DNA from: a candidate division Kazan bacterium RIFCSPHIGHO2_01_FULL_44_14
Lineage (GTDB): Bacteria > Patescibacteriota > Kazan-3B-28
Direction of reading: 5' to 3'
Assembly (NCBI GenBank): GCA_001771185.1
Contig: METB01000001.1
Coordinates: 5,875 to 69,874 of the forward strand
DNA: 64,000 bases
Both the position numbers and the translations under genes were made by a program. The notes under the pieces were generated by a model that saw only the letters and a list, made by a program, of their open reading frames with translations, ran no database searches and was not told where the DNA came from. Positions 1,795 through 62,262 of this stretch are shown here, piece after piece (the first letter of the stretch is position 1; each line of letters begins with the position of its first letter).

Positions 1795-3246
1795 ATGAGT
1801 TTAAAACTTTTCAACACACTCGGTCGGAAGAAGCAGGAATTCAAGCCAATCAAACGTGGTCAGGTTTCGATGTACACCTGTGGACCGACGGTCTATCGGT
1901 CTGCGCACATTGGAAATCTGCGGGCTTATCTATCGGCGGATATTTTGCGGCGGACTTTAGAATATAACGGTTACAAGGTGAAGCAGGTGATGAATGTCAC
2001 GGATGTAGGCCATTTAGTATCTGATGCTGATACTGGTGAAGATAAAGTAGAGCGAGAGTCGAGAAAAACCGGTAAAACTGCTAAAGAAATTACCAAGTTT
2101 TATGCGGAGCAATTCGTAAAAGATATTAAGGCGTTGAATATCGAAATGCCGGTGAAGTTTGCTTGGGCGAGCAAATATATTAAAGAACAGATTGATTTAA
2201 TTAAGCGGCTGGAGAAAAAAGGTTATACCTATAAAACAGCTGACGGGATTTATTTTGATACGGCGAAATTTAAGGGATATGGGAAGCTTGGAACAAGCGG
2301 ATTAGCAGGTAAGCAGGTAAGCAGGGTAGCGCATAGTAAAGAAAAGAAAAGAGAGGCCGATTTTGCGTTGTGGAAATTTTCTGGCAAGGAAAAACGGCAG
2401 CAGGAGTGGAAATCTCCGTGGGGGGTGGGATTCCCCGGCTGGCATATTGAGTGTTCGGCAATTTCCACCAAAGAATTGGGCCAGCCGTTCGATATTCATA
2501 CTGGCGGGATTGATCATGTCTTGATTCACCACAATGATGAAATTGCGCAGAGCGAAGCAGCTTATGGTAAGCCGCTGGCCAATTTCTGGGTGCATAATGA
2601 ATTTTTGCTGATGAATGACAAAAAGATAGCTAAGAGTGCCAAGAATTTTTATACCTTGTCGGATATTATAAAATTAGGATTTGAGCCGTTGGTATTGCGG
2701 TATTTTATGATTTCTGGCCAATACAGCAGTAAATTGAATTTTTCGAAAGCGGCGTTAGAGGGGGCGCAAAATTCTCTCAATAAATTACAAGCAGTATTTA
2801 GCATCTCTGCCTCGTCATCACCGACTCGATCGGGGATCCAGAAAGGAAAAACAAAAATGGATTCCCGCCTTCGTGGGAATGACAAAGGGGGAGTGGACGC
2901 AACATACAAAAAACGCTTTTTGTCTGCTTTAAACGACAACCTAAATCTGCCGAAGGCGTTGGCGGTAGTTTGGGAGTTATTGAAGTCGAAAAAGTCGTTG
3001 GCGGACAAACAAGTTACTTTATTGGATTTCGATAAGGTTTTGGGATTGGGATTGAAAGATTATAAACCAGAGGGGATCCCCGCCGAAGTTAAAAAATTGG
3101 CAGCAGAGCGAGAAATTGCCCGAAAGAAAAAAGATTGGAGCAAAGCTGATCAACTAAGGCGGGTAAGCAAAGGGTATTGGAATACCAGACCGATGAGATG
3201 CAAATTCCGCCTCAAGATCCGTGGGACGGACTATACCGTTTCGTAA
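1795..3246 (+). CDS. cysS: Cysteinyl-tRNA synthetase; carries an in-frame repeat-derived insertion at about 2820-2890
   Basis: Class I aaRS: CGPTVY, HIGN, a Zn-binding Cys near WHIECS, and a KIAKS (KMSKS-like) motif. About 20 extra residues (SSSPTRSGIQKGKTKMDSRLRGNDKGG) are encoded by a palindromic repeat module. Confidence 0.9.
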   Translation: MSLKLFNTLGRKKQEFKPIKRGQVSMYTCGPTVYRSAHIGNLRAYLSADILRRTLEYNGYKVKQVMNVTDVGHLVSDADTGEDKVERESRKTGKTAKEITKFYAEQFVKDIKALNIEMPVKFAWASKYIKEQIDLIKRLEKKGYTYKTADGIYFDTAKFKGYGKLGTSGLAGKQVSRVAHSKEKKREADFALWKFSGKEKRQQEWKSPWGVGFPGWHIECSAISTKELGQPFDIHTGGIDHVLIHHNDEIAQSEAAYGKPLANFWVHNEFLLMNDKKIAKSAKNFYTLSDIIKLGFEPLVLRYFMISGQYSSKLNFSKAALEGAQNSLNKLQAVFSISASSSPTRSGIQKGKTKMDSRLRGNDKGGVDATYKKRFLSALNDNLNLPKALAVVWELLKSKKSLADKQVTLLDFDKVLGLGLKDYKPEGIPAEVKKLAAEREIARKKKDWSKADQLRRVSKGYWNTRPMRCKFRLKIRGTDYTVS

Positions 3247-3440
3247 TGTTTGATATCCCGGAACGGAAAAAGCTGGCGCGGGAGGTATTTCGCGGTAAGC
3301 TGGTCCAGCTGGGTTTTAAAAAGATTCAGTATAGCGTTTGGCGACATCAGTATCCCTGTCAGCGGGAAATTGAATTTCTGGTTCATCTTTATGGGATTGC
3401 TGGATATGTTGATGTCGTGGAGGGTAAAAAAATTTCGTAG
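3198..3440 (+). CDS. Cas2-like (Cas2/VapD fold) small protein, solo; overlaps the cysS 3' end
   Basis: The motif RFVMFDIPERKKLAREVFRGKLVQLGFKKIQYSVW matches the Cas2 beta1-Asp...YG.R.Q.SVF core. It is paralogous to the C-terminus of the ORF at 27501-28001. The ATG at 3198 (an alternative TTG lies at 3177) is in a different frame from cysS and overlaps it. Confidence 0.5.
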   Translation: MQIPPQDPWDGLYRFVMFDIPERKKLAREVFRGKLVQLGFKKIQYSVWRHQYPCQREIEFLVHLYGIAGYVDVVEGKKIS

Positions 3441-3490
3441 TTTATCCATCTTTTAATGATAATCAAGGGGAAGAGTGGGAGTCAGAATAC

Positions 3491-3522
3491 GCCGAGTTGA
3501 AGCGGCCGCTTCAACTCGGCGT
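3491..3522. repeat. 32-nt perfect palindrome cgccgagttgaagcGGCCgcttcaactcggcg downstream of the Cas2-like gene
   Basis: The sequence equals its own reverse complement. GTAGGATAGG direct repeats follow it. Confidence 0.7.
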
Positions 3523-4008
3523 GAAGGGTAGGTAGGATAGGGCAGACAGGTAGGATAGGACAGATGCGGAAGTGAGCCATAGATAAATAGTGGAAAAAGT
3601 AAAAGGCCACCCGGGGTAAACCCAAGTGGCCTGTTTTGTGCGCGACAGTCCCAGAACCGTAAACGAAATGAAGGAAGAAAAAGTTTACGGCCTCCGCCTG
3701 GACTCACTCCGTTTCCCATACCACCTTGTATGGTTTGGATTTTCGTCGCGCTTCCGCCCCCTGGCAGCGTTTGGGAGGTGAGTTTTGAAAACAAATCTCA
3801 CGCCTGATTAGGAGCGGAAAGTTAGGAGGGAGATGCAATGGCGGGTGACTTATAAAAAGATGATTGCCAGCGAACGCCGAGTCACCCTAAGGAACATGAT
3901 AGATGATGACAAATAACCCTCCGACTATAAGACGCTATCATATGGCTGATTTTAAGTCAAGCACAAAAACTTGGCTCTAGACCAATAAAAAGTGGTAGGG
4001 GATAGGTG

Positions 4009-4671
4009 TTATTTCTGGTCCTGCTTGAACCAGATAAAGGACATTAGAATTGGTAAACATCCGGCAATCGCAACTCCAACCATGGGAACATAGAAATTGT
4101 AAGGGGTGGGCATAAACGGCGAGAGCAGAAATAGGACGCCGCCGATGGCGAAGGTATAGGCGCCCAGGCGATGAGTTTTTTGCCAGTTGGCTTCGCTGTC
4201 TAATGTCCATGGGGTTCGAATCCCCATAAAAAAATTGGATTTAACTTGAGTCAAATAATTGCCAATAAAGATAAACAAGATTCCAACTGAAACCGGAACG
4301 ATTTTGCCAACAGCGATCGCATTTCCAGTAATCGCAGCGTAGGTGGTTAGTCCGTACATAAAAGCGAAAAATACCATCATAAAATTACGAATCATTTGGT
4401 AGAAACCCCATGATTCAAGGAAGTGCTGACGGCGTGGCTCGATGTGAGGTAGGAGCAAAAAAAGTAGATACAGAGCCAACATCATGCCGGGGAACATCAA
4501 CACATGTCCTAGGGGCGTGGTCCAATCATCAACTTGTCCACTAATTCCCCAATGGGATGGGACTTCACTAGGAAGTAGGGGATAGGCCCAGATGGCGGTG
4601 GCAATCACGGCCACAATTAACAGAATTGATAGCCATTCCGACTTAAAAGTGAATTGGATTTTTTGCATCAT
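4009..4671 (-). CDS. SdpI/YhfL-like multi-pass membrane protein (DUF1648-like)
   Basis: 220 aa, about 6 TM helices. It is co-directional with, and overlaps by 4 nt, an upstream ArsR-type regulator, matching the SdpR-SdpI architecture. Confidence 0.55.
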   Translation of the reverse strand: MMQKIQFTFKSEWLSILLIVAVIATAIWAYPLLPSEVPSHWGISGQVDDWTTPLGHVLMFPGMMLALYLLFLLLPHIEPRRQHFLESWGFYQMIRNFMMVFFAFMYGLTTYAAITGNAIAVGKIVPVSVGILFIFIGNYLTQVKSNFFMGIRTPWTLDSEANWQKTHRLGAYTFAIGGVLFLLSPFMPTPYNFYVPMVGVAIAGCLPILMSFIWFKQDQK

Positions 4672-4937
4672 TTGAATCCCTCCAAAAAATTATTTAATAT
4701 TTCATAGAACACAGTAGCGTTGAGTGAGTAATAGATTTTCTGACCCTCCTTGTCGGCGGTGATGAGGTTGGCGGATTTGAGCAGGGCCAAGTGGTGGGAC
4801 AGGGACGGCTTAGAAATCGGGAAGAAGGTGGTCATCTCCCCTGGGGTCATCGAACGGTTGCGGAGTTTTTTTAGAATATCTCGACGAGTTGGATCGGATA
4901 ATGCTTTGAAAGCCAAAGATACGTCGCGGATAGCCAT
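4668..4937 (-). CDS. ArsR/SdpR-family winged-HTH transcriptional repressor
   Basis: 89 aa. LSDPTRRDILKKL...SLSHHLALLKSANLI is a typical ArsR HTH. Confidence 0.8.
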   Translation of the reverse strand: MAIRDVSLAFKALSDPTRRDILKKLRNRSMTPGEMTTFFPISKPSLSHHLALLKSANLITADKEGQKIYYSLNATVFYEILNNFLEGFK

Positions 4938-4942
4938 AGGTG

Positions 4943-4976
4943 TATATTTAGATATTTGTCTAACTATCTAAATATA
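4943..4976. promoter_or_regulatory. 12-bp perfect inverted repeat (TATATTTAGATA-N10-TATCTAAATATA); candidate operator for the ArsR/SdpR regulator
   Basis: It lies 6 bp upstream of the regulator start codon and is read directly from the sequence. Confidence 0.5.
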
Positions 4977-5540
4977 GTTGAGGTTTCAAAGAGTGTCAAG
5001 AGGGGAGATAATTTCCAGAAGGGTGGTTTTTGAGGTTTTTGGGATTTTCAAATTTCTTTTGTTTATTTTTGTTATTTTTTTTGCAACGCCTGTGTCGCGT
5101 TGCATCGATGGTTTTTGCCACCCCATTTGCTTGTCCAAATGGGGTGGCGCCCCAAAAGACACCCCACTCACCAATTGCTAGCCAAAATAGAAAATCACCC
5201 TTTCTGGTCTCCTCGCCCGCATTGCTACGCAAAGCGTTGCGGGCGGGTAACGCAAACTCGTCGCTACGCTCCTCAAACATGCTGGACCAAGCAGGTGATT
5301 TTCTAATTGGCGAACCCGCCTACCGGCAGGCAGGCGCAATTGGTTCGATGGGTCCTGGTAAGATTAACACCCAGGAGAATTGAGAGGATACCATAACTTT
5401 TAACTATCTCCATCTCTCCCCTGCCTGCCTGCCCGCCTGCCGGAGGACAGGTAGGCCTGCTGGTTTACAAAAAATTGGCCCTGGGCTAGGGCGGCGCCCC
5501 GTAGTGAAAAATTGGCACTGCTTGGCTTTTGGGCGAAGCC

Positions 5541-5568
5541 CTGACAATTTCTACTACCGGGGTATAAT
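5541..5568 (+). promoter_or_regulatory. Sigma70-like promoter (CTGACA-N16-TATAAT) for the tRNA
   Basis: The -10 TATAAT at 5563-5568 is 10 nt upstream of the tRNA 5' end. Confidence 0.45.
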
Positions 5569-5578
5569 CAGGTTGTAT

Positions 5579-5652
5579 TCCCGGATCGTCTAGCGGCAGG
5601 ACACTTGGTTTTGGTCCAAGGAACCGGGGTTCGAATCCCTGTCCGGGAGCCA
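5579..5652 (+). tRNA. tRNA-Gln (anticodon UUG), CCA encoded
   Basis: Acceptor stem tcccgga/tccggga, a GGTTCGAATCC T-loop, an anticodon loop uuUUGgu, and a 3' gCCA. Confidence 0.8.
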
Positions 5653-5775
5653 GAGGTTTCAGTGTGGAATTCTCATCCCATTTGGCGTGAAAATTTATAA
5701 GGAATAAAAAGTTTTCTGGATATAAAAAAGACGAGCGATGCTCGTCTTTTAGTTTTTAAGAACAAGAACAAGAAG

Positions 5776-6129
5776 TCAGGTCACTGCCGGGAAATGGAAA
5801 TCTGGTGGGAGTTTGGCAAGGAGGCGATACGCTTCTTGGTCCATCTGCTTACCCAGACGGCGCTGCTGTTGCTGTTTTGCTCGGATTTCTTCATTAATCT
5901 GCCAGATCGGCATTGGCTCGGGGCCTTCTGCCAGAATCGTCTCAAGTGAGGATGGCATAACCCACGAATAGTCAATCGGAGCGGTTCTCCGCATCTCGAT
6001 GAGCCCTCCTATTTCTCTCTCGACTTCCATGTACTGGTCATCGAGTTTCTTAAAGGATGGTTGGCTCATCAACCAGTCCCACAAGTTATCTCGGCGCTTG
6101 AACTCCCGAACCTTGCGCCGGATTGACAT
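5776..6129 (-). CDS. Hypothetical protein (about 118 aa)
   Basis: The ORF at 5776-6264 is trimmed to the Met at 6129 because a strong promoter lies inside the longer ORF. No recognisable domain. Confidence 0.4.
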   Translation of the reverse strand: MSIRRKVREFKRRDNLWDWLMSQPSFKKLDDQYMEVEREIGGLIEMRRTAPIDYSWVMPSSLETILAEGPEPMPIWQINEEIRAKQQQQRRLGKQMDQEAYRLLAKLPPDFHFPAVT

Positions 6130-6202
6130 CGATCCAAATATAGCACTAATCCGCTTGGCTAAGAAGATAAACAAGGTGCACCTCCAACACAAAGATAGTT
6201 GC

Positions 6203-6231
6203 AGTATAAATGATTTAGGACTTTTAGTCAA
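6203..6231 (-). promoter_or_regulatory. Sigma70 promoter on the minus strand: TTGACT-N17-TATACT
   Basis: The reverse complement of 6203-6231 reads ttgact aaaagtcctaaatcatt tatact. Confidence 0.5.
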
Positions 6232-6306
6232 TAGAAAATCTTGTCTGGGAGCGACTTTTAGCATAAGATAAAAGGGCTATAATTTAAGATAAAGGGGAGC
6301 CAAATC

Positions 6307-6726
6307 ATGAAATATGTTTATTGGATTCTCGGTCTAGTGGTGTTGGCGGGAATTGGTTGGTTAGCATCTCAAAGTCAGCCGGTGATAAATAATTCAGCAG
6401 TCGAAACTGCCGAGGTTATCGTAAACAGTCCGACAGCGAATTCTACCATCACCAGTCCGCTGACGGTGAGCGGAACGGCAGTTGGAAATTGGTATTTTGA
6501 GGCGTCATTTCCAATCGAACTGTTAAATACTAGCAATCAAGTAGTTGGTACTGGTCTGGCTGAAGCGCAGAGTGATTGGATGACATCTAGTCCAGTCCCC
6601 TTTAATGCAAATATTATTTTTCCGACTCAAACCCCAGGCAGTAGTGGAAGTTTGGTACTGCACAAAGATAATCCGTCAGGCGATTCGCAGAATGACGATT
6701 CGTTTACTGTCCCGGTAATGTTCTAG
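6307..6726 (+). CDS. Secreted Gmad2-type Ig-like domain protein
   Basis: A signal anchor is followed by SPLTVSGTAVGNWYFEASFPIEL, typical of the Gmad2 immunoglobulin-like fold. Confidence 0.55.
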   Translation: MKYVYWILGLVVLAGIGWLASQSQPVINNSAVETAEVIVNSPTANSTITSPLTVSGTAVGNWYFEASFPIELLNTSNQVVGTGLAEAQSDWMTSSPVPFNANIIFPTQTPGSSGSLVLHKDNPSGDSQNDDSFTVPVMF

Positions 6727-6801
6727 AAAATTTAAGTAGTTTAAACAAATCCCCCAGTTTCGGATGGGGGATTTTTGCAAACAAAATTAACGACGAAGCA
6801 A

Positions 6802-7755
6802 TTAAGTTGTAATGGTCGATAAATTATGAATGGCGTAGACGGCATAGACAATAAACAGCAATATTCCTTCCCGGCGAGTTAGCATATTTTTTGACCACAT
6901 CAAGATGCCGAATAGCGCGACCGAAACCAGCAAAAAGATGGCCGAGATGTTGGTACTAACTGGAGCCGCGATAGCAAATGGTGAGATTAAAGCCAATAAT
7001 CCAAGGGTGGGTACATTCAACAAAACATTGCCAAGCAAATCTCCGAGGATAAGGTTGTGAGATTGTTTGCGCGATTGAGTTAAGACCAAGGTTACTTCTG
7101 GCAGATTGGTGCCAATGGACAAAATTAATAGACCGATTAGTAGCGGTGAAACCGATAGGGTGGAGGCAACCACTAGGGATGAATTGACCAGATAATGAGC
7201 CAAAACCAAGATGGCAACTAGGGATAACAAAAGTTTAAGGATTTCGATGACCAAATGAGAATTGCGGTGATTCGGAGAGGGAAGAGCGAGATGTTTTTCA
7301 TAGATATTGCGGCGCTGGTACATTCGGCCGATGAATAATAAGTAGGCGCCGATTAGCCAGAGTCCATCAAGTCGAGTCAACTGGCCGTCAAAAATGGCGA
7401 CTACCGGTAGGGCACTAATAATTAGATACATCAGAAAGTCGTCATTTCTCAAAAATCGGTTAATTGATAATTTGCCGGATAAAATCGCTGCCAGGCCGGC
7501 CAAAAGCGATAAAATTACAATACTGGCTCCGAGCAAATTACCCAAAGACAACCCTGGAGCATGCTGAAGAGCGGAATCAATCGCCACCGTGATTTCCGGC
7601 GTAGAAGTAGCCACACCGACTACAAAGAAACCAATCACAAAATCATTGGTATGAAAATATTTGGCGATCCGATGGGCACTCTTGGTGGCGAATTTGGCTG
7701 CCAATCCAAGCGCACAGGATAAACCGAGCAAAAGTAAAATATGAGTAATCAGCAT
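6802..7755 (-). CDS. Ca2+/cation antiporter (CaCA/YrbG family)
   Basis: 317 aa with two alpha-repeat halves. The motifs GNLLGASIVILSL and GTNLPE(V)T are present. Confidence 0.8.
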   Translation of the reverse strand: MLITHILLLLGLSCALGLAAKFATKSAHRIAKYFHTNDFVIGFFVVGVATSTPEITVAIDSALQHAPGLSLGNLLGASIVILSLLAGLAAILSGKLSINRFLRNDDFLMYLIISALPVVAIFDGQLTRLDGLWLIGAYLLFIGRMYQRRNIYEKHLALPSPNHRNSHLVIEILKLLLSLVAILVLAHYLVNSSLVVASTLSVSPLLIGLLILSIGTNLPEVTLVLTQSRKQSHNLILGDLLGNVLLNVPTLGLLALISPFAIAAPVSTNISAIFLLVSVALFGILMWSKNMLTRREGILLFIVYAVYAIHNLSTITT

Positions 7756-7908
7756 GAGTGAGTGATAATCTGAATTATATTATATCAATCTAATTCAATA
7801 AATCAGAGCGGGTTGGGGGCGGATAATGCTTACGCAGTTAATTGGTTAGCGAGATTCCTGCAATTAGATGAACGGCCGTTCAGTATATTGCAAAATATGA
7901 CATAGGGA

Positions 7909-15266: not shown

Positions 15267-15698
15267 TTTTTGTTTTCTTTTTCAAGCGTTCTCACCGCGC
15301 TTGACCCGTTAGTATTTCTTCTCGTCATTGCGAGCTGTAGGCGTGGCAATCTAATCCTCCCCTTAAGATAAGGGGAGGATTAGGAAGGGTTATTGACTGA
15401 TTATATTCTTAACTCCCCCTTACTCCTCTTACCTTAAGAGGGGTGACCACAACTATTCATCACAAATCCTTCCGTGGTTCTACTATCTAGTAGAACAAAG
15501 GAGGACCTTTAACTGATTAATAGACAAGTCCTCATCCTAGGGCCAAAAAAAGAAGCAGGAAGCCAACTTGGTTGTTAAATTCTATGTGTAGTGGAAGGAA
15601 ACGGCCGTCTATTTATACAACACGGGGGAAGAAGTGGAATAGATTGATGAATCTGGCGTCTAAATTCGAGATTCTAAATCCCATATTCTAGATTTTAC

Positions 15699-26350: not shown

Positions 26351-26905
26351 TTGTTAGTACTCCGATTGGCTCGTACTGGACGCCGGAATCAACCGAAATA
26401 TCGTCTAGTAGTGGCCGAAAACAGCAAGCCGATTGACGGGAAAGTGGTTGAAGTGGTGGGGCACTACAATCCAACCGATTTAAATAAACCTCTAGTGTTG
26501 GATAAGGAGGTGATTTCTGCGTGGATTACCAAAGGAGCCAAACCGTCAAATACAGTGGCTAAACTTTTAAATAAAGAAGGTTTTGATTTGCCGGTTCATT
26601 TACATCCGGTGCGTCCGGCTAAAAAGGCATCCAAAGAACCCTCTGTTACCAAGGTCATGGAGGACGGGACGGAATCGGCTCCGGTTGTGAGACCAGCCGA
26701 ACCCGCAAATGAAGAAATGGTAGCGGAAATTGCTCCGGTTGAAGAAACTCCAGTTGAAGTTGTAGCGGAAAAATCAACTTCAGAACCAGTTGCTGAAACG
26801 GAACCGGTGACAGAAGTTACCCTGGCCGACCAGCCAGAGGCGCAGTCCTCCGAAGTTTCAACGCAGGAGGAAGAGAAGCTGGAAGATGAAGGGAATGCTA
26901 GTTAA
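26351..26905 (+). CDS. rpsP: Ribosomal protein S16 with a long acidic C-terminal extension
   Basis: N-terminal LRLARTGRRNQPKYRLVVA...GHYNP, then about 100 aa of an E/P/V-rich tail. TTG start. Confidence 0.85.
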   Translation: MLVLRLARTGRRNQPKYRLVVAENSKPIDGKVVEVVGHYNPTDLNKPLVLDKEVISAWITKGAKPSNTVAKLLNKEGFDLPVHLHPVRPAKKASKEPSVTKVMEDGTESAPVVRPAEPANEEMVAEIAPVEETPVEVVAEKSTSEPVAETEPVTEVTLADQPEAQSSEVSTQEEEKLEDEGNAS

Positions 26906-26947: not shown

Positions 26948-27319
26948 ATGGCAGAAAAAGATCAGGAATTCGTGGAATATGCGGTGCGGGCAATTGTAGA
27001 AAACCCCGACAAAGTTAAGGTCGAACGAACTATTGATGAACGGGGCGTATTGTTGTCATTGGAAGTCGATCCAGCGGACATGGGCAAAATTATCGGCAAA
27101 GATGGTCGGACGGCAAAAGCCATTCGGACATTGCTTCGAGTGTTGGGTGCCCAGAACGATGCCCGAGTGAACTTAAAGATTATTGAGCCAGAAGGCGGTC
27201 TTGGCCGGGCTTCTGAACGGGCAGAACAGCCAGTTGAACCAGTGGCTGAACCAGTAGCCGTAGTCGATGTGCCCGAGACCACTTCCAAAGAAGACCTTGG
27301 TGTGCTGGACGAAGAATAA
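26948..27319 (+). CDS. KH-domain RNA-binding protein (YlqC-like)
   Basis: IIGKDGRTAKAIRTL is a GxxG KH motif. Canonical position after rpsP. Confidence 0.75.
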   Translation: MAEKDQEFVEYAVRAIVENPDKVKVERTIDERGVLLSLEVDPADMGKIIGKDGRTAKAIRTLLRVLGAQNDARVNLKIIEPEGGLGRASERAEQPVEPVAEPVAVVDVPETTSKEDLGVLDEE

Positions 27320-27348
27320 TTCTTCTGGAACTTTACGATTCAAATAGA

Positions 27349-27370
27349 AAGAGCCCACTCGGGCTCTTTC
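27349..27370 (+). terminator. Hairpin terminator agagcccactcgggctct + TTCC
   Basis: An 8-bp stem after the KH gene with a weak T-tract. Confidence 0.5.
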
Positions 27371-27435: not shown

Positions 27436-27475
27436 CTCTTGCCCACTCTGACGACGGCCGTCGTCAGAATGGGCA
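27436..27475. repeat. 40-nt near-perfect palindrome (cttgcccactctgacgacggccgtcgtcagaatgggcaag); left flank of the Cas2-like cassette
   Basis: One mismatch from a perfect self-complement. Its core gacgacggccgtcgtc is repeated at 27966-27998. Confidence 0.65.
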
Positions 27476-27500
27476 AGTTAATTACTGATATAATGATAAT

Positions 27501-28001
27501 ATGAGGACTTCAGGTGGAGCATATCGTTGGCTGATGAGGTTGATGTACGCGACGGATCCTAGATGGGAAGTGAAGGTGGACCGATCGCTCGATCACCGAT
27601 TCGGTAGTCGCCAACCAATTCGATCGCTACGAAGTTTCAGATATCTATGCTCAAAGGGGTACTTAACTCATCTGGAAGGAGATAGATATCAACTAACCGA
27701 TTTAGCGCGGATTAATCTCTTGCAGGAAATGGTTAAGCGGCGTAAGCCGGACGGCAAGTGGCGTGTGGTGGTATTCGACATCCCGGAAAAATTAAGACAA
27801 AATCGCAATGTCTTTCGGCACCATTTGATCAATTTGGGATTTAGGATGAAACAACAGAGTGTGTGGGTATCGCCTCTACCGTGTGAGGATTTGGTGGCAT
27901 TAGTGGTGAAGTACCACGGTTTAGGACAGTTTGTGGAGTTAATAGTAGGAAAAGATGTGCCCCTTAGGACGACGGCCGTCGTCAGAGTGGGCAGGGAATA
28001 G
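27501..28001 (+). CDS. wHTH + Cas2-like domain protein (PaaX-like architecture), solo
   Basis: C-terminal WRVVVFDIPEKLRQNRNVFRHHLINLGFRMKQQSVW matches the Cas2 beta1-Asp/SVF motif and is paralogous to 3198-3440. An N-terminal segment (GYLTHLEGDRYQLTDLAR) resembles a winged helix. It sits where rimM usually lies. Confidence 0.5.
   Translation: MRTSGGAYRWLMRLMYATDPRWEVKVDRSLDHRFGSRQPIRSLRSFRYLCSKGYLTHLEGDRYQLTDLARINLLQEMVKRRKPDGKWRVVVFDIPEKLRQNRNVFRHHLINLGFRMKQQSVWVSPLPCEDLVALVVKYHGLGQFVELIVGKDVPLRTTAVVRVGRE
27966..27998. repeat. Second copy of the gacgacggccgtcgtcagagtgggcagg palindrome, at the 3' end of the Cas2-like ORF
   Basis: Shares a 24-nt identical core with 27436-27475 and encodes the ORF C-terminus (TTAVVRVGRE). 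Confidence 0.6.
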
Positions 28002-28032
28002 TACGGAAAAGGTGGTGTAAGATGAGAGCAAG

Positions 28033-28761
28033 ATGAAATATACGGTTATTACAATTTTTCCGCAGTTAATTGAAGATTATTTCCAGGAAGGGATTTTGTC
28101 TCGAGCTTTGCGGAACAAGCAGGTGGGATTGAAAACGATTAATCCGCGGAAATTTACCAAAGACCGACACCAAACGGTGGATGATATACCGTATGGCGGG
28201 GGAGCGGGACTCGTTATGAAGATTGAGCCGTTAGTAAAAGCGATTAAATCTGCAGCTAGGTCTCGTTTTCGTCATTCCGAACTTGTTTCGGAATCTAGTT
28301 CTAAAACGGAGAAGATCCTGAAACAAGTTCAGGATGACGGGAAAAAAGTAAGAATTATTTTGCTCGACCCAAGAGGCAAAAGATTTACGCAGAAAGAGGC
28401 GAAACGGTTAACGAAATATGATGAGTTGATTTTTGTGTGTGGAAGGTATGAGGGGGTGGATGAAAGAATTAAATATTACATCGACGAGAAGTTGTCGATC
28501 GGGGATTTTGTGCTAATGGGCGGGGAGTTGGGGGCGCTGACCATAATGGAATCCGTGGCGCGGTTAATCCCGGGGGTTCTGCACCATCCCGAGTCGGCAA
28601 AGTTTGAGAGTTTTTCTTTTGGGGATAATTTGGAACACCCGCAATACACTCGGCCGGAGGTATTCGAGGGGCATAAGGTGCCGAAAGTACTCTTGTCGGG
28701 ACATCATGGGAAGGTGGAGGAGTGGCGAGTAAAAAATGGTAAGAATAAGAGAGGAATCTAA
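28033..28761 (+). CDS. trmD: tRNA (guanine37-N1)-methyltransferase; carries an in-frame repeat insertion at about 28266-28340
   Basis: SPOUT-fold TrmD motifs (YGGGAGLVM, CGRYEGVDERI, GGEL). About 22 extra residues between the conserved blocks are encoded by two hairpin modules (ttccgaa-cttgt-ttcggaa and tcctgaa-acaag-ttcagga). Confidence 0.9.
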   Translation: MKYTVITIFPQLIEDYFQEGILSRALRNKQVGLKTINPRKFTKDRHQTVDDIPYGGGAGLVMKIEPLVKAIKSAARSRFRHSELVSESSSKTEKILKQVQDDGKKVRIILLDPRGKRFTQKEAKRLTKYDELIFVCGRYEGVDERIKYYIDEKLSIGDFVLMGGELGALTIMESVARLIPGVLHHPESAKFESFSFGDNLEHPQYTRPEVFEGHKVPKVLLSGHHGKVEEWRVKNGKNKRGI

Positions 28762-29009
28762 TCAATCTCACCAATCTGAACAATCTGTACCAATCTTTTG
28801 GTTAGATCCCTCGGCTTCGCTCGGGATGACAGAAAATTGGATAAATTGGTTAGATTCGCCCAGCAGGGCTAAAAGCTTGACTGGGGGCGATGATTCAGAT
28901 AGGGTGAGGGCGTTAGGTGGGCCTGTGATTTTCAGGGATATCAAACCACCAGCACCTTAACGACTAGGCAAAAATAGTTAGCCGGAAAGGTGAGTAAAAG
29001 GAGACTAAG

Positions 29010-29738
29010 ATGAGTGAAGGAAAACTCTTAGCCGCCTGTAGGAAGATAGAGAACATCTTACATGAGCTTAGGAAACAAGAGTGTGATTCAGAGGGACATG
29101 AGGGACATGGCCAAAGAGCTGCCGAGTTTCTGAAGCAAATCAGATCACTCGATGACGAGCGTGCTCTCGGCAGGTTTCTCCAGCGTGGGAAACACCTTTT
29201 AGAGTTGATGGTAAGGGAACGGATACCTTCTGTGGAGGAATTTCGGAACCTTCTTGACGACTCTTGTCCTCAAATTATTAATTGTGATGCGAAACCAATA
29301 GTCCCGAGTGGACTAAAAATATGGGAGCACACAAAGCAAGGGATGGTGGAGTGGCGTCCGGAGAGATTTCAGTTTTATCGCTCTCCTTTGCAGGAGGGTT
29401 GTTGGCAACTCGGAAAAGGTTGTTCTGGCTCGGTTCTCCTTCAAGAGCTACGGGATAAAAACAAGCAGGTGTGCAACGCCTGTTTGGCAGATTGGTTACT
29501 CGGCAATCCTCGGTTTGTGTTGGGCGATAAGTGGCGTGAAGGTCACTGTAGCCTAGTTAGGGTAATTTTCTGGGGGACAATATTCTCTGAAGTGAGCGGT
29601 AAAAAACGCTATGTCAAACATCTGAGCTTTGGTGGGCCGTTTGGGCTACACACGGGTGTAATTGAACTTGACCAAGTTCGTTTCACCGGTGGAACTAATT
29701 TCGACCAGGACTCTCCTGCATTGATTATGGTTGGTTAG
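29010..29738 (+). CDS. Orphan hypothetical protein (GC-elevated cassette 2), Cys-rich
   Basis: 242 aa with no recognisable domain, followed by a strong terminator. Confidence 0.45.
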   Translation: MSEGKLLAACRKIENILHELRKQECDSEGHEGHGQRAAEFLKQIRSLDDERALGRFLQRGKHLLELMVRERIPSVEEFRNLLDDSCPQIINCDAKPIVPSGLKIWEHTKQGMVEWRPERFQFYRSPLQEGCWQLGKGCSGSVLLQELRDKNKQVCNACLADWLLGNPRFVLGDKWREGHCSLVRVIFWGTIFSEVSGKKRYVKHLSFGGPFGLHTGVIELDQVRFTGGTNFDQDSPALIMVG

Positions 29739-43651: not shown

Positions 43652-44057
43652 CATACAATTCAGATTGGTGAGATGGGTGAGAAAATGTTATAAAAAGAAA
43701 CGGCCGTCTATTTATAAAACATATTTTCTCTATAGGGTTGACACCGAATTCTGCTGTGGTAATCTGGTCGCGTTCCCTGCTGTTGGACTGTGAGTTTTGC
43801 CCTCCCCCCAAAGGAATCCCATAGGTCCGATATGCGGGTGAATTGTTCTTGAACCGGAAGCCGGCCATAATCTCTCAACTATAGTGCCAGATGTCTGGAA
43901 GCGATAGCATCATGCTGTGACCCAGAGGCATTTTATCAGTTGAAGGCCGCCATTGTCTGCTGAAGATATGGATGGCAAAATGACCGGTATAAATTAAGGG
44001 TCCCCATTGCGCAAGCTGGGGACCTGTTTTTATGTTCGGTCAGGCATAATAGAGGAG

Positions 44058-49110: not shown

Positions 49111-52014
49111 ATGTTCTTGAGCGGATGGAATTTGCTACTCGTCAGCTTACTGGTAACTGGTTGGCTGATTTTGTTTTGGCTGGTTGTTGTTTGGCGGAAG
49201 AATTCGATTAATAGTCGGCCGATGGTGGAACCAACTACTAAACCGGCAGGGTTGGCCGAATCCAAAATTACACCGACCACGGTGCCGATTTCAGCAGAAG
49301 GCAAGAGTCAGGAAGGGGTGGTGTTAGCAATCGAAGTACCAAAAGAAAATGAGACCACGCCATTGGCGGCCGAATTGATGTTCGCTTCTCTGCACGGGAT
49401 TTATCGGCCAGAGTTGGATAAGCGCAAGGATTTAACCCAAGAACATGTTGCGTTTGAATTGCAGGCCAAAGAAAAATCAATTCGATTTTTTGTGTGGGTA
49501 CCGCGTCATTTGCAGGGCTATGTCGAAGGACAAGTTTATGCCCAGTACCCAGGTGTAAATGTGTATGAAGTGAAGGATTATGCCAAGACCGAAAAAGTCG
49601 AGGGTGACTTGAGCGCGGCCGCAGCCGAGTTGTCATTGGTTCGAGAAGATATTTTCCCGATTAAGGGTTTTGATAACTTTGATGTTGATCCATTGGCTGG
49701 GATTACGGCGACTTTGAGCAAACTAGAAGGAGTATCGCAAGTCCGGATCCAAATTTTGATGCGGCCAGAAAGTGACGCCTGGAGAAATCGAGCGATTAAC
49801 TATATCGCAGCAATTAAGGCCGGTAAGAAGGACTTTAAAACTACTCTGATAAAGGGGCTGACCGGCTTGGCTTCGGATGTGGTGCGGACCGCAATTAGCG
49901 GTCAACCAACTCCACCGCTAGTTCCCGGTAAAGTTGAATTAGCGCCAGGGGTAGATGAAGTTTTAAAACGAATTGAAGAGAAAAGTAATAAACTGGGTTT
50001 TCAAACTCGGATTCGGATAGTGGCTCTGGACCAATCTATTCCAACGGCTCGACAGAAATTGGATTTGGTAGTTGGTTCATTCAAACAATTCAATACCACT
50101 AACCTGAATGGTTTTGTAGCATCTCCGATTAGCGCATCGGCGGCAGCAATTTTACGGGCCTATGAACAACGTCAATTTGGTGGCAGCGGTTCGGTATTAA
50201 ATGTCGCGGAACTGGCCAGCATTTATCATTTGCCGAGTAAAACCGTGACTACTCCGCATATTGTGTGGGCGGGAAGTAAGAAGGGGGAGCCACCGGCGAA
50301 TTTGCCGTTGGCGGATGAAATTCCGGCTGAAGAACTGACGAATTTAGGCCTGACTGATTTCCGTGGTAGCACGGAAAAATTTGGGATTAAAATAAAAGAT
50401 CGTCGCCGACATATTTATATCATTGGGAAAAGCGGTGTAGGTAAATCAACATTATTAGAGAATATGACACTCGATGATATTCGCGAACGGAGGGGGGTGG
50501 GGGTAGTGGATCCGCACGGTGAGTATGTGGATTATGTGTTGGAGCGAATTCCGTCTTATCGAGTGAATGATGTGATTATATTTGATCCAGGCGACCGGGC
50601 CTTTCCAATTGGATTTAATGTTTTGGAAGTTGATACTCCAGACCAAAAAGTAGTCACGGCTTCGGGAGTAGTCGGCGTATTCAAAAAAATCTTTGGTGAG
50701 TCGTGGGGGCCACGACTTGAATATTGGTTGTCTTCGGCTATCTTGGCTTTGCTGGACTATCCTGACGCGACTCTGATGATGGTCCCGCGGTTATTCACGG
50801 ATGACATATTTCGGGCAGGAGTAATTGATGTGGTGAAAGATCCAGTAATCAAACAGCGCTGGTTAAATGAATACGATCGGTTGGATCAGCGCCAAAGAAA
50901 TGAAACAATTTCACCAATTTTAAATAAGGTCGGGCAGTTCTTGTCGTCTTCGGTTATCCGTAATATTGTGGGCCAGCCCAAGAGTTCGATTGATATGCGA
51001 CAAGTAATGGATGAAGGCAAAATCGTTTTGATTAAATTGGCCAAGGGGTTGATTGGGGAAGATAACGCGGCGTTACTTGGAGCGTTAATGATTACCAAGT
51101 TACAGTTGGCGGCTTTGAGCCGGGCCGATGTCGAAGAAACCAAACGGCCTGATTTTTTCTTGTATGTGGATGAGTTCCAAAACTTTGCCACTGATTCGTT
51201 TGCCACGATTTTGTCGGAAGCCAGAAAATATCATTTGAGTTTAACATTGGCCAACCAATATATGAGCCAATTGTCCGATACGGTTAAGAACGCAATTTTT
51301 GGTAATGTCGGAACCCTAATTTCATTTAGAGTTGGTGGTGATGACGCAGGATTTTTGACCAAGGAATTTGCGCCAGTATTTGACGAGCAGGACTTGGTCA
51401 ATTTGGACATTTTCAAAATCTATTTGAAATTGTCGATTGACGGGCTGACAGCAAACGCGTTCTCGGCCGTGACTTTGCCGCCTTCAACCGATCAAAATCA
51501 AGGTAATGATAAAATCATTAAGTTGTCGCGGGAGCGGTATGCCAAAGATGTGGCATTCGTGGAGGGCAAGGTGCTATCAAGTGCGGATGTCAGCGCGGCA
51601 CTGTCTTCGGCGGGGCAATCCCGGCCTCCACAGTCGTCTCGATACTCCCAACGGCCACAGATGGGCAATAGAGCGCCTTATGCACCTTCTTATCCGGCCA
51701 GTCCGGCTTATCGTCAACCCGGTCTGTCGGCCAGTTCTTCTGCTCCCACCCGGCAGGGTCCAAAAGTGGATTTGTTGAAGAATTTGATCTCTAAAGTTGA
51801 GCGTCAAAAGCAGACGCCGTTGAGCGAAAGCGAAAAAGCCGATGTGGCAAAGACCTTGATGAATGACTTGAAAGACGCTGACGGTTCAATGAAAGACGCA
51901 CTGGATCGAGCCAGGAAACAGCGGGAAGAGGAACAAAAAAACTCCAGCGAACTAAAACCGAACGAGACAATCAAGTTGGATGATGATTATGATCCGCATA
52001 ATGAGCGGAGATAA
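49111..52014 (+). CDS. Membrane-anchored HerA/DUF87 + TraD/TraG-C-like P-loop ATPase (type IV coupling-protein-like), paralog 1
   Basis: N-terminal TM helix, Walker A GKSGVGKST followed by VVDPHGEY (the HerA-like hallmark), C-terminal FLYVDEFQNF...ARKYHLSLTLANQ (TraD/TraG C-terminal-like), and a disordered S/P/Q-rich tail. Confidence 0.65.
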   Translation: MFLSGWNLLLVSLLVTGWLILFWLVVVWRKNSINSRPMVEPTTKPAGLAESKITPTTVPISAEGKSQEGVVLAIEVPKENETTPLAAELMFASLHGIYRPELDKRKDLTQEHVAFELQAKEKSIRFFVWVPRHLQGYVEGQVYAQYPGVNVYEVKDYAKTEKVEGDLSAAAAELSLVREDIFPIKGFDNFDVDPLAGITATLSKLEGVSQVRIQILMRPESDAWRNRAINYIAAIKAGKKDFKTTLIKGLTGLASDVVRTAISGQPTPPLVPGKVELAPGVDEVLKRIEEKSNKLGFQTRIRIVALDQSIPTARQKLDLVVGSFKQFNTTNLNGFVASPISASAAAILRAYEQRQFGGSGSVLNVAELASIYHLPSKTVTTPHIVWAGSKKGEPPANLPLADEIPAEELTNLGLTDFRGSTEKFGIKIKDRRRHIYIIGKSGVGKSTLLENMTLDDIRERRGVGVVDPHGEYVDYVLERIPSYRVNDVIIFDPGDRAFPIGFNVLEVDTPDQKVVTASGVVGVFKKIFGESWGPRLEYWLSSAILALLDYPDATLMMVPRLFTDDIFRAGVIDVVKDPVIKQRWLNEYDRLDQRQRNETISPILNKVGQFLSSSVIRNIVGQPKSSIDMRQVMDEGKIVLIKLAKGLIGEDNAALLGALMITKLQLAALSRADVEETKRPDFFLYVDEFQNFATDSFATILSEARKYHLSLTLANQYMSQLSDTVKNAIFGNVGTLISFRVGGDDAGFLTKEFAPVFDEQDLVNLDIFKIYLKLSIDGLTANAFSAVTLPPSTDQNQGNDKIIKLSRERYAKDVAFVEGKVLSSADVSAALSSAGQSRPPQSSRYSQRPQMGNRAPYAPSYPASPAYRQPGLSASSSAPTRQGPKVDLLKNLISKVERQKQTPLSESEKADVAKTLMNDLKDADGSMKDALDRARKQREEEQKNSSELKPNETIKLDDDYDPHNERR

Positions 52015-59856: not shown

Positions 59857-62262
59857 ATGACTTGGCTGGGGATAATAATTGGATTGGTTGGGCTGGCCAT
59901 TATCGGCTGGTTTATTTTTATGCGCAAAAAGCCAGTAGTTCAGCAAGACGATGTTAGAACTCGGGTTAATTTAATGATTACAGTCCCACAGGGGAAGAGA
60001 GACGACGCCCAAAAAGAACTCAAGGCATTGATTTCGCCAATGGAAGTAATTTTGGGAAACCTGACCGGAGTAGCCGAAGTGGTAGGGGAACGGCACTTTA
60101 CTTTTGAAATTGCGACCGAAGGGGAGTTGATTACATTTTACTTAACTGCGCCTGAAGAACTGGTAGATTTTGTGGAAAAACAAATTACTTCTCAATATCC
60201 GGAAGCGGCGGTGGAACGGGCGCCGTATCCAAATATTTTTCCCAAAGAGGGGAGAACGGCGGCTACTCAACTTAAATTAAAGAAAGAAAGTTGGTTGCCG
60301 ATTGTAACTTTTGAAAAGATGACAACTGACGGATTGAATGCGTTAACCAACGCTTTAAGTAAATTGGTAGATATGAAGTCCGGGGCCAGTATTCAGATTG
60401 CTTTTCGTCCAACTACTAATAGCAAATGGCAAGGAAAAGCCCACGGTATCGCTCGGGCCATGCAACAAGGCAAGGAATCAGGTAGTATCAGTAAAGGAGT
60501 AATTAAAGGCCTGACTGGGCTAGTTGGCCCCCAAGATAAAGACAAGGGTGGCGAAGTTCCGAAGAAGTTGACTCAACTTCAGGAAGAGGTGATTGGCCGG
60601 ATTGAACAAAAGGCCTCAAAACCAGGATTTGATGTAGTAATCCGATTAATCACCGCTGCTCCAGACGAACCATCTGCTAGAATGCACCTCAAGTCATTGG
60701 CAGATAGTTTTTTGCAATTTAGTTCGCCGGAGTTAAATCAATTTGAAGCCAGCAATCAAATCGAACAAGAAGTAATTCGCAATTATGTATTGCGTCAGTT
60801 TGGTGACATAAAAAATAGTTTCATTTTAAATACTGAAGAGTTAGCGACTATTTTCCATATTCCAACAGTTCAGACCGATACACCAAACCTTAGATGGCAA
60901 AAAGCCAAGCGGTTGGCTGGACCGGACAATCTGCCGAGTGAAGGTGTGATTTTGGGTAAAAATGTGTTTCGAGGAGTCGAAAAAACGGTTCGAATCAAAA
61001 CTGATGACCGGCGTCGGCATATTTATACGATTGGTAAAACCGGGACTGGTAAAACTACCTGGATGCAGAATCTGGCCTTGCAGGACATTATCAATGGCGA
61101 GGGAGTGTGTGTAATTGATCCTCACGGCGACATGATTGAATGGATTCTTCAGCGGGTGCCAAAAGACCGGGTAGATGATGTAATCTATTTTTATCCGCCA
61201 GACATTGAACGACCGTTAGGATTGAATTTATTAGAAGCCAAAACCGCGGCCGCGCGCGATATGGTGGTAGCGGAAATGATCGCGATTTTCTATAAGTTAT
61301 TTGATCCGCAGAGTTCAGGAATTGTCGGTCCGATTTTTGAACACTATATGCGAAATTCGATGTTGCTACTACTGGCCGATTCTGAAGAAGGGGCGACGCT
61401 CATTGATATTCCGAGGGTCTTTACTGACAGGGCGTTTCGCGAACGCAAGTTACAACATGTGACCGACCCAACGGTGTTGCGGTTCTGGAAAGAAGAGTTT
61501 GCCCAGGCCGAAAAAAGTAATCAAGTAGGGGAGTTGTTCTCTTATATTGTTTCGAAGGTGGGACGGTTTATTAGCAACGAAATGATGCGGAATATTGTTG
61601 GTCAAACCAAGAGCGCTTTTGATATTCGAGACATTATGGACAACAAAAAGATTTTATTGGTGAACTTGGCTAAGGGCTTAACTGGTGATATTAACAGCAA
61701 CCTGCTCGGATTTATTATTGTGTCAAAACTGCAGATGGCAGCGCTTAGTCGGGCCGATGTGCCAGAAGCCAACCGGCCTGACTTCTATTTGTATATTGAT
61801 GAATTTCAGAATGTAACCACCGATTCAATTTCAACGATTTTGTCAGAGGCCAGAAAGTATCGGCTGAACTTAACTATCGCTCACCAGTTTGTGGCTCAAC
61901 TAGAAGATAAGATTCGTGATGCGGTGCTAGGCAATGTGGGCTCGATTGTGGCCTTCCGAATTGGAGCACTGGACACCGATGTAATCGGCAAGGAATTTGC
62001 GCCAGAAGTGAGTGAGAATGATTTAGTGAATATTGAGAGTCGGAATGCCTATGTGAAATTAATGATTAGTGGAGCCTCTAGCAAGCCCTTTACCATGCAG
62101 ACACTACCCCCAATGGGGTCTGATAACCCTCGAATTGGTCAGGCCATCAAGCAACTGTCACGACTGAAGTTTGGTAAAGATCGCCGGACTGTCGAATTAC
62201 AGGTCGGAGAAAGAATTAAATATGTGAAAGATATTGACCTGTCTGGGAGGTTGCCATTATAG
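59857..62262 (+). CDS. Membrane-anchored HerA/DUF87 + TraD/TraG-C-like ATPase, paralog 2
   Basis: Same architecture as 49111-52014: TM helix, Walker A GKTGTGKTT + VIDPHGDM, and YLYIDEFQNV...ARKYRLNLTIAHQ. The N-terminal ~400-aa domains are also homologous. Confidence 0.65.
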   Translation: MTWLGIIIGLVGLAIIGWFIFMRKKPVVQQDDVRTRVNLMITVPQGKRDDAQKELKALISPMEVILGNLTGVAEVVGERHFTFEIATEGELITFYLTAPEELVDFVEKQITSQYPEAAVERAPYPNIFPKEGRTAATQLKLKKESWLPIVTFEKMTTDGLNALTNALSKLVDMKSGASIQIAFRPTTNSKWQGKAHGIARAMQQGKESGSISKGVIKGLTGLVGPQDKDKGGEVPKKLTQLQEEVIGRIEQKASKPGFDVVIRLITAAPDEPSARMHLKSLADSFLQFSSPELNQFEASNQIEQEVIRNYVLRQFGDIKNSFILNTEELATIFHIPTVQTDTPNLRWQKAKRLAGPDNLPSEGVILGKNVFRGVEKTVRIKTDDRRRHIYTIGKTGTGKTTWMQNLALQDIINGEGVCVIDPHGDMIEWILQRVPKDRVDDVIYFYPPDIERPLGLNLLEAKTAAARDMVVAEMIAIFYKLFDPQSSGIVGPIFEHYMRNSMLLLLADSEEGATLIDIPRVFTDRAFRERKLQHVTDPTVLRFWKEEFAQAEKSNQVGELFSYIVSKVGRFISNEMMRNIVGQTKSAFDIRDIMDNKKILLVNLAKGLTGDINSNLLGFIIVSKLQMAALSRADVPEANRPDFYLYIDEFQNVTTDSISTILSEARKYRLNLTIAHQFVAQLEDKIRDAVLGNVGSIVAFRIGALDTDVIGKEFAPEVSENDLVNIESRNAYVKLMISGASSKPFTMQTLPPMGSDNPRIGQAIKQLSRLKFGKDRRTVELQVGERIKYVKDIDLSGRLPL

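Follow-up and report, generated by a model that had tools for sequence, protein, structure and literature searches.

Within a 64,000-nucleotide stretch of DNA (hereafter the window) from a bacterium of the candidate phyla radiation (CPR), belonging to the 'candidate division Kazan' group, a gene for a protein of 166 amino acids (aa) is located between a KH-protein gene (26948-27319) and trmD (28033-28761), as the original prediction had placed it. Judging from profile matches and a structural model, this open reading frame (ORF) encodes a short PaaX-like protein composed of a winged-helix DNA-binding domain and a Cas2-like ferredoxin-fold domain, without the ligand-binding C-terminal domain of PaaX. 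The gene is bracketed by two copies of a long palindrome. This arrangement is found again and again in a very large CPR family, and the gene therefore most probably forms an accessory, self-regulating module on its own rather than a replacement for RimM. The features on which this reading depends are the following, in window coordinates:

27347-27370, plus strand: terminator-like hairpin 3' of the KH-protein gene, GAAAGAGCCC-ACTC-GGGCTCTTTC, read from the sequence, with equivalents in the related loci L100 and L103
27438-27477, no strand: upstream palindrome, putative operator, 20+20 nt with one mismatch, centre ACGG/CCGT, read from the sequence
27486-27494, plus strand: extended -10 element TGATATAAT, read from the sequence
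27501-28001, plus strand: gene for the 166-aa winged-helix and Cas2-like protein (ORF, profile matches, AlphaFold2 model)
27513-27695, plus strand: winged helix, aa 5-65 (AlphaFold2 model)
27741-27965, plus strand: PaaX_M domain, aa 81-155 (Pfam match)
27956-27995, no strand: downstream palindrome copy over the stop codon and last codons, putative second operator, roadblock or 3' hairpin

Domain structure of the 166-aa protein

A protein from a Kazan genome bin, named 'CRISPR-associated endonuclease Cas2' by NCBI, shares 100% identity with the product of the ORF. The match of this product to PaaX_M (PF20803, 'PaaX central Cas2-like domain') covers aa 81-155 with an E value of 6.1e-21 and 74.8 bits, against a cut-off of 24, and the two Cas2 models fall on either side of their thresholds, with 22.7 bits for Pfam PF09827 (below its cut-off of 23.8) and 27.7 bits for TIGR01573 (just above 24.5). 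The equivalog model for full-length PaaX, TIGR02277, scores 19.8 bits, far under its cut-off of 264.55. PADLOC gave weak Cas2 matches alone, and the PHROGs profiles gave no match. The winged helix at aa 5-65 is a prediction of the AlphaFold2 model (pLDDT 89.4, built on 18 sequences), none of the Pfam models for N-terminal domains matching at E <= 1. The same model shows a beta-alpha-beta-beta-alpha-beta domain at aa 86-151, followed by a low-confidence tail (aa 152-166) that is encoded by the downstream palindrome.

In a Foldseek comparison with the PDB, Mycobacterium tuberculosis Rv0674 (3KFW) and Escherichia coli PaaX (8A39) rank first, aligned over 155-171 columns, and are followed by many Cas2 chains. 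The PaaX_M match, the AlphaFold2 model and the Foldseek ranking all bear out the winged-helix and Cas2-like (PaaX-like) identity that had been proposed from the sequence. They leave no place for a divergent RimM: the predicted fold contains no PRC barrel, and neither Pfam nor NCBIfam yields a RimM match for the protein. Twelve residues are invariant in the 18-sequence alignment (D84, G85, R88, F92, D93, P95, R102, R106, L109, Q118, S120, and V121); neither among them nor among the Pfam and NCBIfam matches did we find an H-x-H or HUH-tyrosine transposase signature.

Palindromes flanking the gene

Both bracketing palindromes of the original prediction are present, with the upstream copy shifted by 2 nt and the second copy extending over the last codons of the gene. 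The upstream copy spans the -35 and spacer region of the gene's own predicted promoter, whose -10 element TGATATAAT ends 6 nt before the ATG at 27501. This short distance implies a leaderless mRNA, and the -10-N6-ATG layout leaves the upstream palindrome outside the transcript that would start from this promoter. The downstream copy is more degenerate, with 14 of 22 positions paired; its left arm codes for the last residues of the protein, and its end lies 38 nt from the start of trmD. The hexamer TAAGAT at 28018-28023 is a weak candidate for a trmD promoter that we do not claim as such.

The arrangement is not peculiar to the window. A metagenome scan recovered 537 relatives, from which we kept 80 loci with 78 distinct proteins (individual loci are cited by L numbers), and a profile-search census counted 5,791 clusters at 50% identity with E <= 1e-3, or 3,127 with E <= 1e-10, most members being 180-200 aa long. 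At the loci of the 78 proteins, palindromes number 3.1 per kb at gene ends against 0.16 per kb elsewhere, a difference of ~19-fold, and many of the 'elsewhere' palindromes are second copies just beyond the scanned interval or belong to a second paralog. At least one palindrome occurs in 42 of the 62 loci with full flanks, and both copies in 15 of these 62 under strict criteria, several of the seeming misses being copies slightly beyond the scanned interval; clearly matched upstream and downstream copies, 500-850 nt apart, are found in ~25 loci. The palindromes are associated with the gene across the whole family.

Seven loci (L007, L008, L009, L015, L012, L104, and L016) each have two copies with the centre CGGCCG, the arms of which are alike within a locus and unlike between loci. 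Pairing nevertheless persists: in 19 aligned sites, 85.7% of the positions are paired, compared with 65.9% in shuffles, with changes on both arms at 15 of 18 pairs. The covariation score of these sites is 0.549 (0.214 in shuffles, with 0 of 500 shuffles reaching the observed value), and it drops to at most 0.175 in controls where the partner was slid by 1-3 columns. The symmetry is preserved by compensatory changes on both arms. At L016 (4459-4563), two downstream palindrome copies lie 38 nt apart, a repeat-spacer-repeat spacing like that of a single CRISPR unit.

These observations bear directly on the idea that the palindromes are generic dispersed REP-like repeats, or chance palindromes without any link to the gene, to which we give almost no credence. 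In its favour, RCGGCCGY-type octamers are over-represented in the window (11 versus 2.6 expected) and a few degenerate solo sites exist. However, the 16-nt palindrome core is found in the 64 kb only at the gene's two flanks, with no match expected or found in shuffled sequence, the two longest zero-loop palindromes of the window both adjoin PaaX_M genes, and the ~19-fold density at gene ends follows the gene family. The generic-repeat reading is therefore largely refuted, and with it the possibility, raised at the outset, that the flanking copies simply belong to a genome-wide repeat family. A scan for CTGACGACGGCCGTCGTCAG in a collection of genome contigs that excluded the source organism's genome gave matches in five unrelated genomes.

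The form of the palindromes points to double-stranded DNA sites read by a dimer. In those that flank the genes, the loop measures 0 nt in 46 cases, 2 nt in 12, and 4 nt in 7, with no other length, and the centre is drawn from a small set (CGATCG, CGGCCG, CATATG, and CTATAG). Elsewhere in these loci, palindromes have loops of all lengths from 0 to 8 nt. Mismatches on the sense strand are A-C in 14 cases and G-T in 10, hence without a G-U wobble bias. We also looked for -10-like hexamers, defined as agreeing with TATAAT in at least 5 of 6 positions and beginning between -2 and +12 nt from the right edge of the palindrome. They accompany 19 of 33 upstream copies (58%), in contrast with 16% of downstream copies, 22% at the mirror edge, and 7% of random 20-mers; the -10-N6-ATG layout of the window recurs in L007, L008, L009, L015, L076, and L079. 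The restricted loops, the lack of wobble bias, and the adjacency to -10 elements together favour double-stranded DNA operators for a symmetric dimer over RNA hairpins.

A role at the RNA level, with the palindromes serving as mRNA hairpins, as processing sites for RNase III or a Cas2-like RNase, or as 3' stabilisers or terminators that cut the message from a longer transcript, accordingly appears rather improbable. Symmetry through the centre with loops confined to 0, 2, and 4 nt is unexpected for RNA, G-U pairs are not in excess over A-C on the sense strand, in most loci the -10 element and the likely leaderless start come only after the upstream copy, and no Rfam family matches the region. 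Predicted folding speaks for the RNA-level alternative, since the hairpins would be very stable (-30.1 kcal/mol, z -7.3, for the upstream palindrome, -21.4 kcal/mol for the downstream copy, and -28.9 kcal/mol for a further palindrome at 3489-3522, described below), as does the position of the downstream copy, which lies in or right after the ORF and hence is transcribed. Moreover, some Cas2 proteins have been reported as RNases. Because of this very stable predicted folding, the downstream copy may act at the 3' end of the RNA.

The KH-trmD interval and other sites in the window

The original prediction described the gene as occupying the rimM slot and as possibly recruited into the ribosomal operon. 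We did not find support for either view. Two published surveys report RimM to be missing from most, indeed nearly all, CPR bacteria (PMC6744442, PMC12641178), and the interval itself is variable, as seen in relatives with the gene order rnc-nusB-rpmF-rpsP-KH-slot-trmD-uvrB that were recovered by anchoring on TrmD. The same rpsP-KH-X-trmD position is occupied by the genes of L007, L008, L009, and L015, and members of the same protein subfamily, also with palindromes, are found between tig and clpP in L012 and L104. The gene is missing from this slot in four other relatives, listed here with the identity of their TrmD to that of the window:

L100, TrmD 78% identical: no gene in the KH-trmD slot, a single palindrome of the same type, TGCCGCTTCAGAAGACGG/CCGTCTCATAAAGCGGCA (the slash marks the centre)
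L101, TrmD 75% identical: Asp/Glu racemase gene in the slot
L102, TrmD 75% identical: Asp/Glu racemase gene and two further ORFs in the slot
L103, TrmD 73% identical: 67-nt gap with a terminator-like hairpin only; related gene at tig-clpP

None of these four loci (L100, L101, L102, and L103) contains rimM. As originally noted, no RimM-like gene is visible in the window either: among the ~30 window ORFs scanned against Pfam (other genes were assigned by synteny with related contigs) there is neither RimM nor any cas gene. The hairpin at 27347-27370 appears from its sequence to separate the rpsP-KH unit from the module. Together with the variability of the slot, this terminator-like hairpin after the KH gene marks the module as an accessory unit inserted into a changeable intergenic stretch, outside the ribosomal operon, from which its own promoter-like element also sets it apart. 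The notion of a RimM substitute, or of another ribosome-biogenesis factor recruited into an rpsP-trmD operon, is thus barely tenable. Its position between the KH gene and trmD, and nothing else, speaks for it; against it stand a fold made of a winged helix and a Cas2-like domain instead of a PRC barrel, a slot that is empty or filled by other genes in close relatives, the presence of the same subfamily at tig-clpP elsewhere, the absence of RimM from most CPR bacteria, and the hairpin and promoter-like element just mentioned.

A second PaaX_M gene and two further palindromes were recognised in the window:

3150-3440, plus strand: 5'-truncated remnant of a second module, with the PaaX_M domain only, fused to a 3'-truncated cysS (homology)
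3489-3522, no strand: perfect 17+17 nt palindrome, centre GCGG/CCGC, 49 nt after the stop codon of the remnant (sequence)
7859-7892, no strand: solo degenerate palindrome, TGCAATTAGATGAACGG/CCGTTCAGTATATTGCA, between divergent Na/Ca-exchanger and DUF5671 genes (alignment)

The ORF at 3177-3440 contains the PaaX_M domain only (E 1.6e-17) and, when the reading is continued upstream in frame, homology to the family (STKAGKQRVLEYQ...) starts directly after a TGA stop codon. The C-terminal anticodon-binding domain of cysS is truncated and its frame runs, out of frame, into the module remnant (1795-3440), as if a deletion had fused the two. The palindrome at 3489-3522 is the downstream site that the remnant has kept, the winged helix and the upstream site having been lost. 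The claim of two Cas2-fold genes in 64 kb without CRISPR-Cas thus stands as regards the second PaaX_M match and the absence of cas genes among the scanned ORFs, but the second gene is a 5'-truncated remnant and not an intact paralog. The solo palindrome at 7859-7892 can be aligned with, and resembles, the sites of the sister modules that occupy the tig-clpP slot (L012, L016, and L104), and may be either a relic or a regulated promoter.

Several other observations concern the surroundings of these elements. Right after the palindrome at 3489-3522, a short direct repeat, GGTAGGATAGGRCAGA, lies in a stretch without a convincing ORF (3530-3570). Two intergenic regions (15590-15625 and 43690-43725) share a 24-nt motif, GAAACGGCCGTCTATTTATAMAAC, with the centre ACGGCCGT, one of them ~300 nt upstream of uvrC. 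The trmD-uvrB interval is variable too: in the window it holds a 242-aa ORF without a Pfam match (28736-29738), and in L009 (11679-14209) and L011 (3318-4771) a gene for an RVT_1 reverse transcriptase, beside which L011 has a bAvd accessory gene, a combination that suggests a diversity-generating retroelement. An RVT_1 and bAvd pair also occurs elsewhere in L103, upstream of rnc (1-1096). Near the module, ribosomal protein S16 (26351-26905) has an acidic C-terminal extension of ~100 aa, and TrmD (28033-28761), at 242 aa, exceeds the 212-230 aa of its counterparts in close relatives and so may contain an internal insertion. Finally, two large ATPases that resemble the coupling proteins of type IV secretion, with TrwB/TraG-like domains (49111-52014 and 59857-62262), are encoded among the housekeeping genes ligA, gatA, and gatB.

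Proposed self-repression, competing readings, and known systems

No partner gene recurs within 2 kb in ~78 related loci; the module consists of a single gene and does not correspond to a conserved two-gene type II toxin-antitoxin operon. We consider it somewhat better than an even chance that it is a self-repressing DNA-binding module, the product of which binds as a dimer to its cognate palindromes, the upstream one overlapping the promoter. The Cas2-like domain would make the protein a homodimer, as in PaaX and Cas2, and this dimer would bind a dyad-symmetric site of 36-40 bp specific to its own locus. Since the upstream site abuts the -10 element and fills the -35 and spacer region, a bound dimer would block RNA polymerase and the gene would repress itself. 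The copy at the stop codon might be a second operator cooperating with the first by DNA looping or, alternatively, a roadblock or 3' hairpin insulating the module from the rpsP-KH and trmD units. Dimerisation, DNA binding, repression, and looping are all steps that we infer. The distance from the centre of the site to the transcription start is -43.5 in the window and about -28.5 in L008, L009, and L015, and such a variable distance is better accommodated by steric repression than by the fixed geometry of an activator. For the same reason, we regard a class II activator arrangement as unlikely.

Several points weigh against self-repression. The nuclease-associated residues of Cas2 are kept, including the Asp at the end of beta-1 (D93), which is invariant in the 18-sequence alignment. 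Simple patterns for the D93 motif and for the QxSVW motif are found in 72 and 74 of the 78 proteins, respectively, and this conservation hints at more than a role in dimerisation. A hydrophobic N-terminal segment, present in ~40% of the family, would be unusual in a soluble repressor, and operators of winged-helix proteins are typically much shorter than a perfect palindrome of 36-46 bp. The function of the downstream copy is conjecture, and the spacings between the two copies in the Kazan subfamily (497-569 bp) show no obvious helical phasing. Besides, it is not obvious what a cell would gain from a regulator with no conserved target but itself, although the family counts its members in thousands.

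Alternatively, the module could be a mobile or selfish cassette, its palindromes serving as cleavage or recombination sites at which the Cas2-like domain or a host recombinase excises or integrates the ~560-bp unit of gene and site, leaving a solo palindrome behind. The conserved Cas2 Asp is compatible with such an activity, as are the patchy occupation of the KH-trmD slot among genomes with the same gene order (empty with a solo palindrome of the same type in L100, without a palindrome in L103, and taken by other genes in L101 and L102), the use of a second slot at tig-clpP by the same subfamily with its palindromes (L012 and L104), the truncated remnant by cysS, and the solo site at 7859-7892. 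In L022, moreover, two paralogs lie within 4 kb, each with its own palindrome. However, target-site duplications were not seen, none being consistent across loci, and all protein pairs with at least 90% identity have common flanks, without any near-identical cassette in a new context. Across the region, no difference separates six independent contigs from the same population (100% identity), and none of them is an excision or inversion variant; collections of phages, viral contigs, and plasmids contain no relatives except actinobacterial PaaX; recombinase and HUH motifs are absent and, as said, no partner recurs. A solo palindrome could equally result from an ordinary deletion between direct repeats or be a separate binding site. 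Gain and loss of the module at intergenic sites are real, but active transposition is not borne out, and we hold the mobile cassette to be possible but unlikely. Of the two halves of the original proposal of a small cassette that is 'a mobile or regulated module', it is thus the regulated module that finds the better support, recent mobility leaving none of its expected traces (target-site duplications, moved cassettes, or excision variants). In the L022 region concerned (4560-7034), the second paralog, on the minus strand at 6426-6962, is likewise framed on either side by a palindrome of its own, and a third copy of this palindrome, at 5220, lies upstream of a 143-aa ORF paralogous to the adjoining 161-aa ORF.

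More speculatively, the module could be a minimal self-acting DNA element in which the Cas2-like domain serves as a nuclease or strand-transferase at its own repeat-sized (30-46 bp) palindromes. We think this improbable, but of high interest if true, since CRISPR adaptation, with its partnership of Cas2 and repeats, would then have a free-living relative, or else the element would define a new class of site-specific mobile cassettes. In a variant of this reading, the paralogs with a hydrophobic N-terminus may tether their own loci to the membrane and thereby organise the small CPR chromosome.

Whichever its activity, a single-gene module of this kind deserves attention in the CPR, whose genomes are tiny and contain few recognisable regulators, yet harbour a family of thousands of sequence clusters. 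One may ask why such self-contained units of a single gene are kept by streamlined genomes. The family is routinely mislabelled "Cas2" or "PaaX", and our analysis corrects these current annotations. As each gene comes with a matched pair of long palindromes, the family also offers a model of protein-DNA specificity that is concrete and cheap to test, nature having supplied many cognate pairs. In addition, it links a Cas2-fold protein to repeat-sized palindromes in a non-CRISPR setting, which bears on ideas about the origin of Cas2.

We found no description of this arrangement of a PaaX/Cas2-like gene and palindromes in CPR bacteria in the searchable literature, but its parts can be compared with several known systems. 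PaaX represses as a dimer bound to a palindromic operator, and PaaX repressors (E. coli PaaX and M. tuberculosis Rv0674) have, as modelled for the 166-aa protein, an N-terminal winged helix followed by a central Cas2-like domain. They differ in having a C-terminal PaaX_C domain, so that the 166-aa protein shares two of the three PaaX domains; its sites, by contrast, are near-perfect palindromes of 30-46 bp on both sides of the gene, many members of its family have a hydrophobic N-terminus, and its closest organism-named relatives are CPR bacteria (Kazan, Patescibacteria). No paa genes were detected in the scanned window ORFs or in the neighbourhoods of the relatives and, together with the missing C-terminal domain and the TIGR02277 score far below its cut-off, this argues against membership in PaaX proper. 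The protein resembles Cas2 in its ferredoxin-like fold, in the Asp that closes beta-1, and in a Q-x-S-V-[FW] motif, to which it adds the DNA-binding winged helix. Its context is not that of Cas2, since neither cas1, another cas gene, nor a CRISPR array was found in the window or beside the ~80 relatives.

The gene layout has parallels outside these two families. REP sequences with their RAYT genes (REPtrons) and IS200/IS605 elements also consist of a small single gene between palindromes that its dimeric product is thought to recognise. In the module described here, however, the fold is different, HUH and tyrosine motifs are lacking, the palindromes are not dispersed (two copies in 64 kb), and there is no sign of recent transposition. 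Another parallel is provided by repressor genes bracketed by their operators, such as lambda cI between OR and OL, and by the loops of LacI, GalR, and DeoR. In these systems, looping between two operator copies strengthens self-repression. The fold of our protein is unrelated to theirs and its gene stands alone on the chromosome without a regulated cargo, but here too the gene lies between two dyad sites of its own, one of them at the promoter, and by analogy we propose that a loop between these two sites may tighten the repression of the module by its own product.

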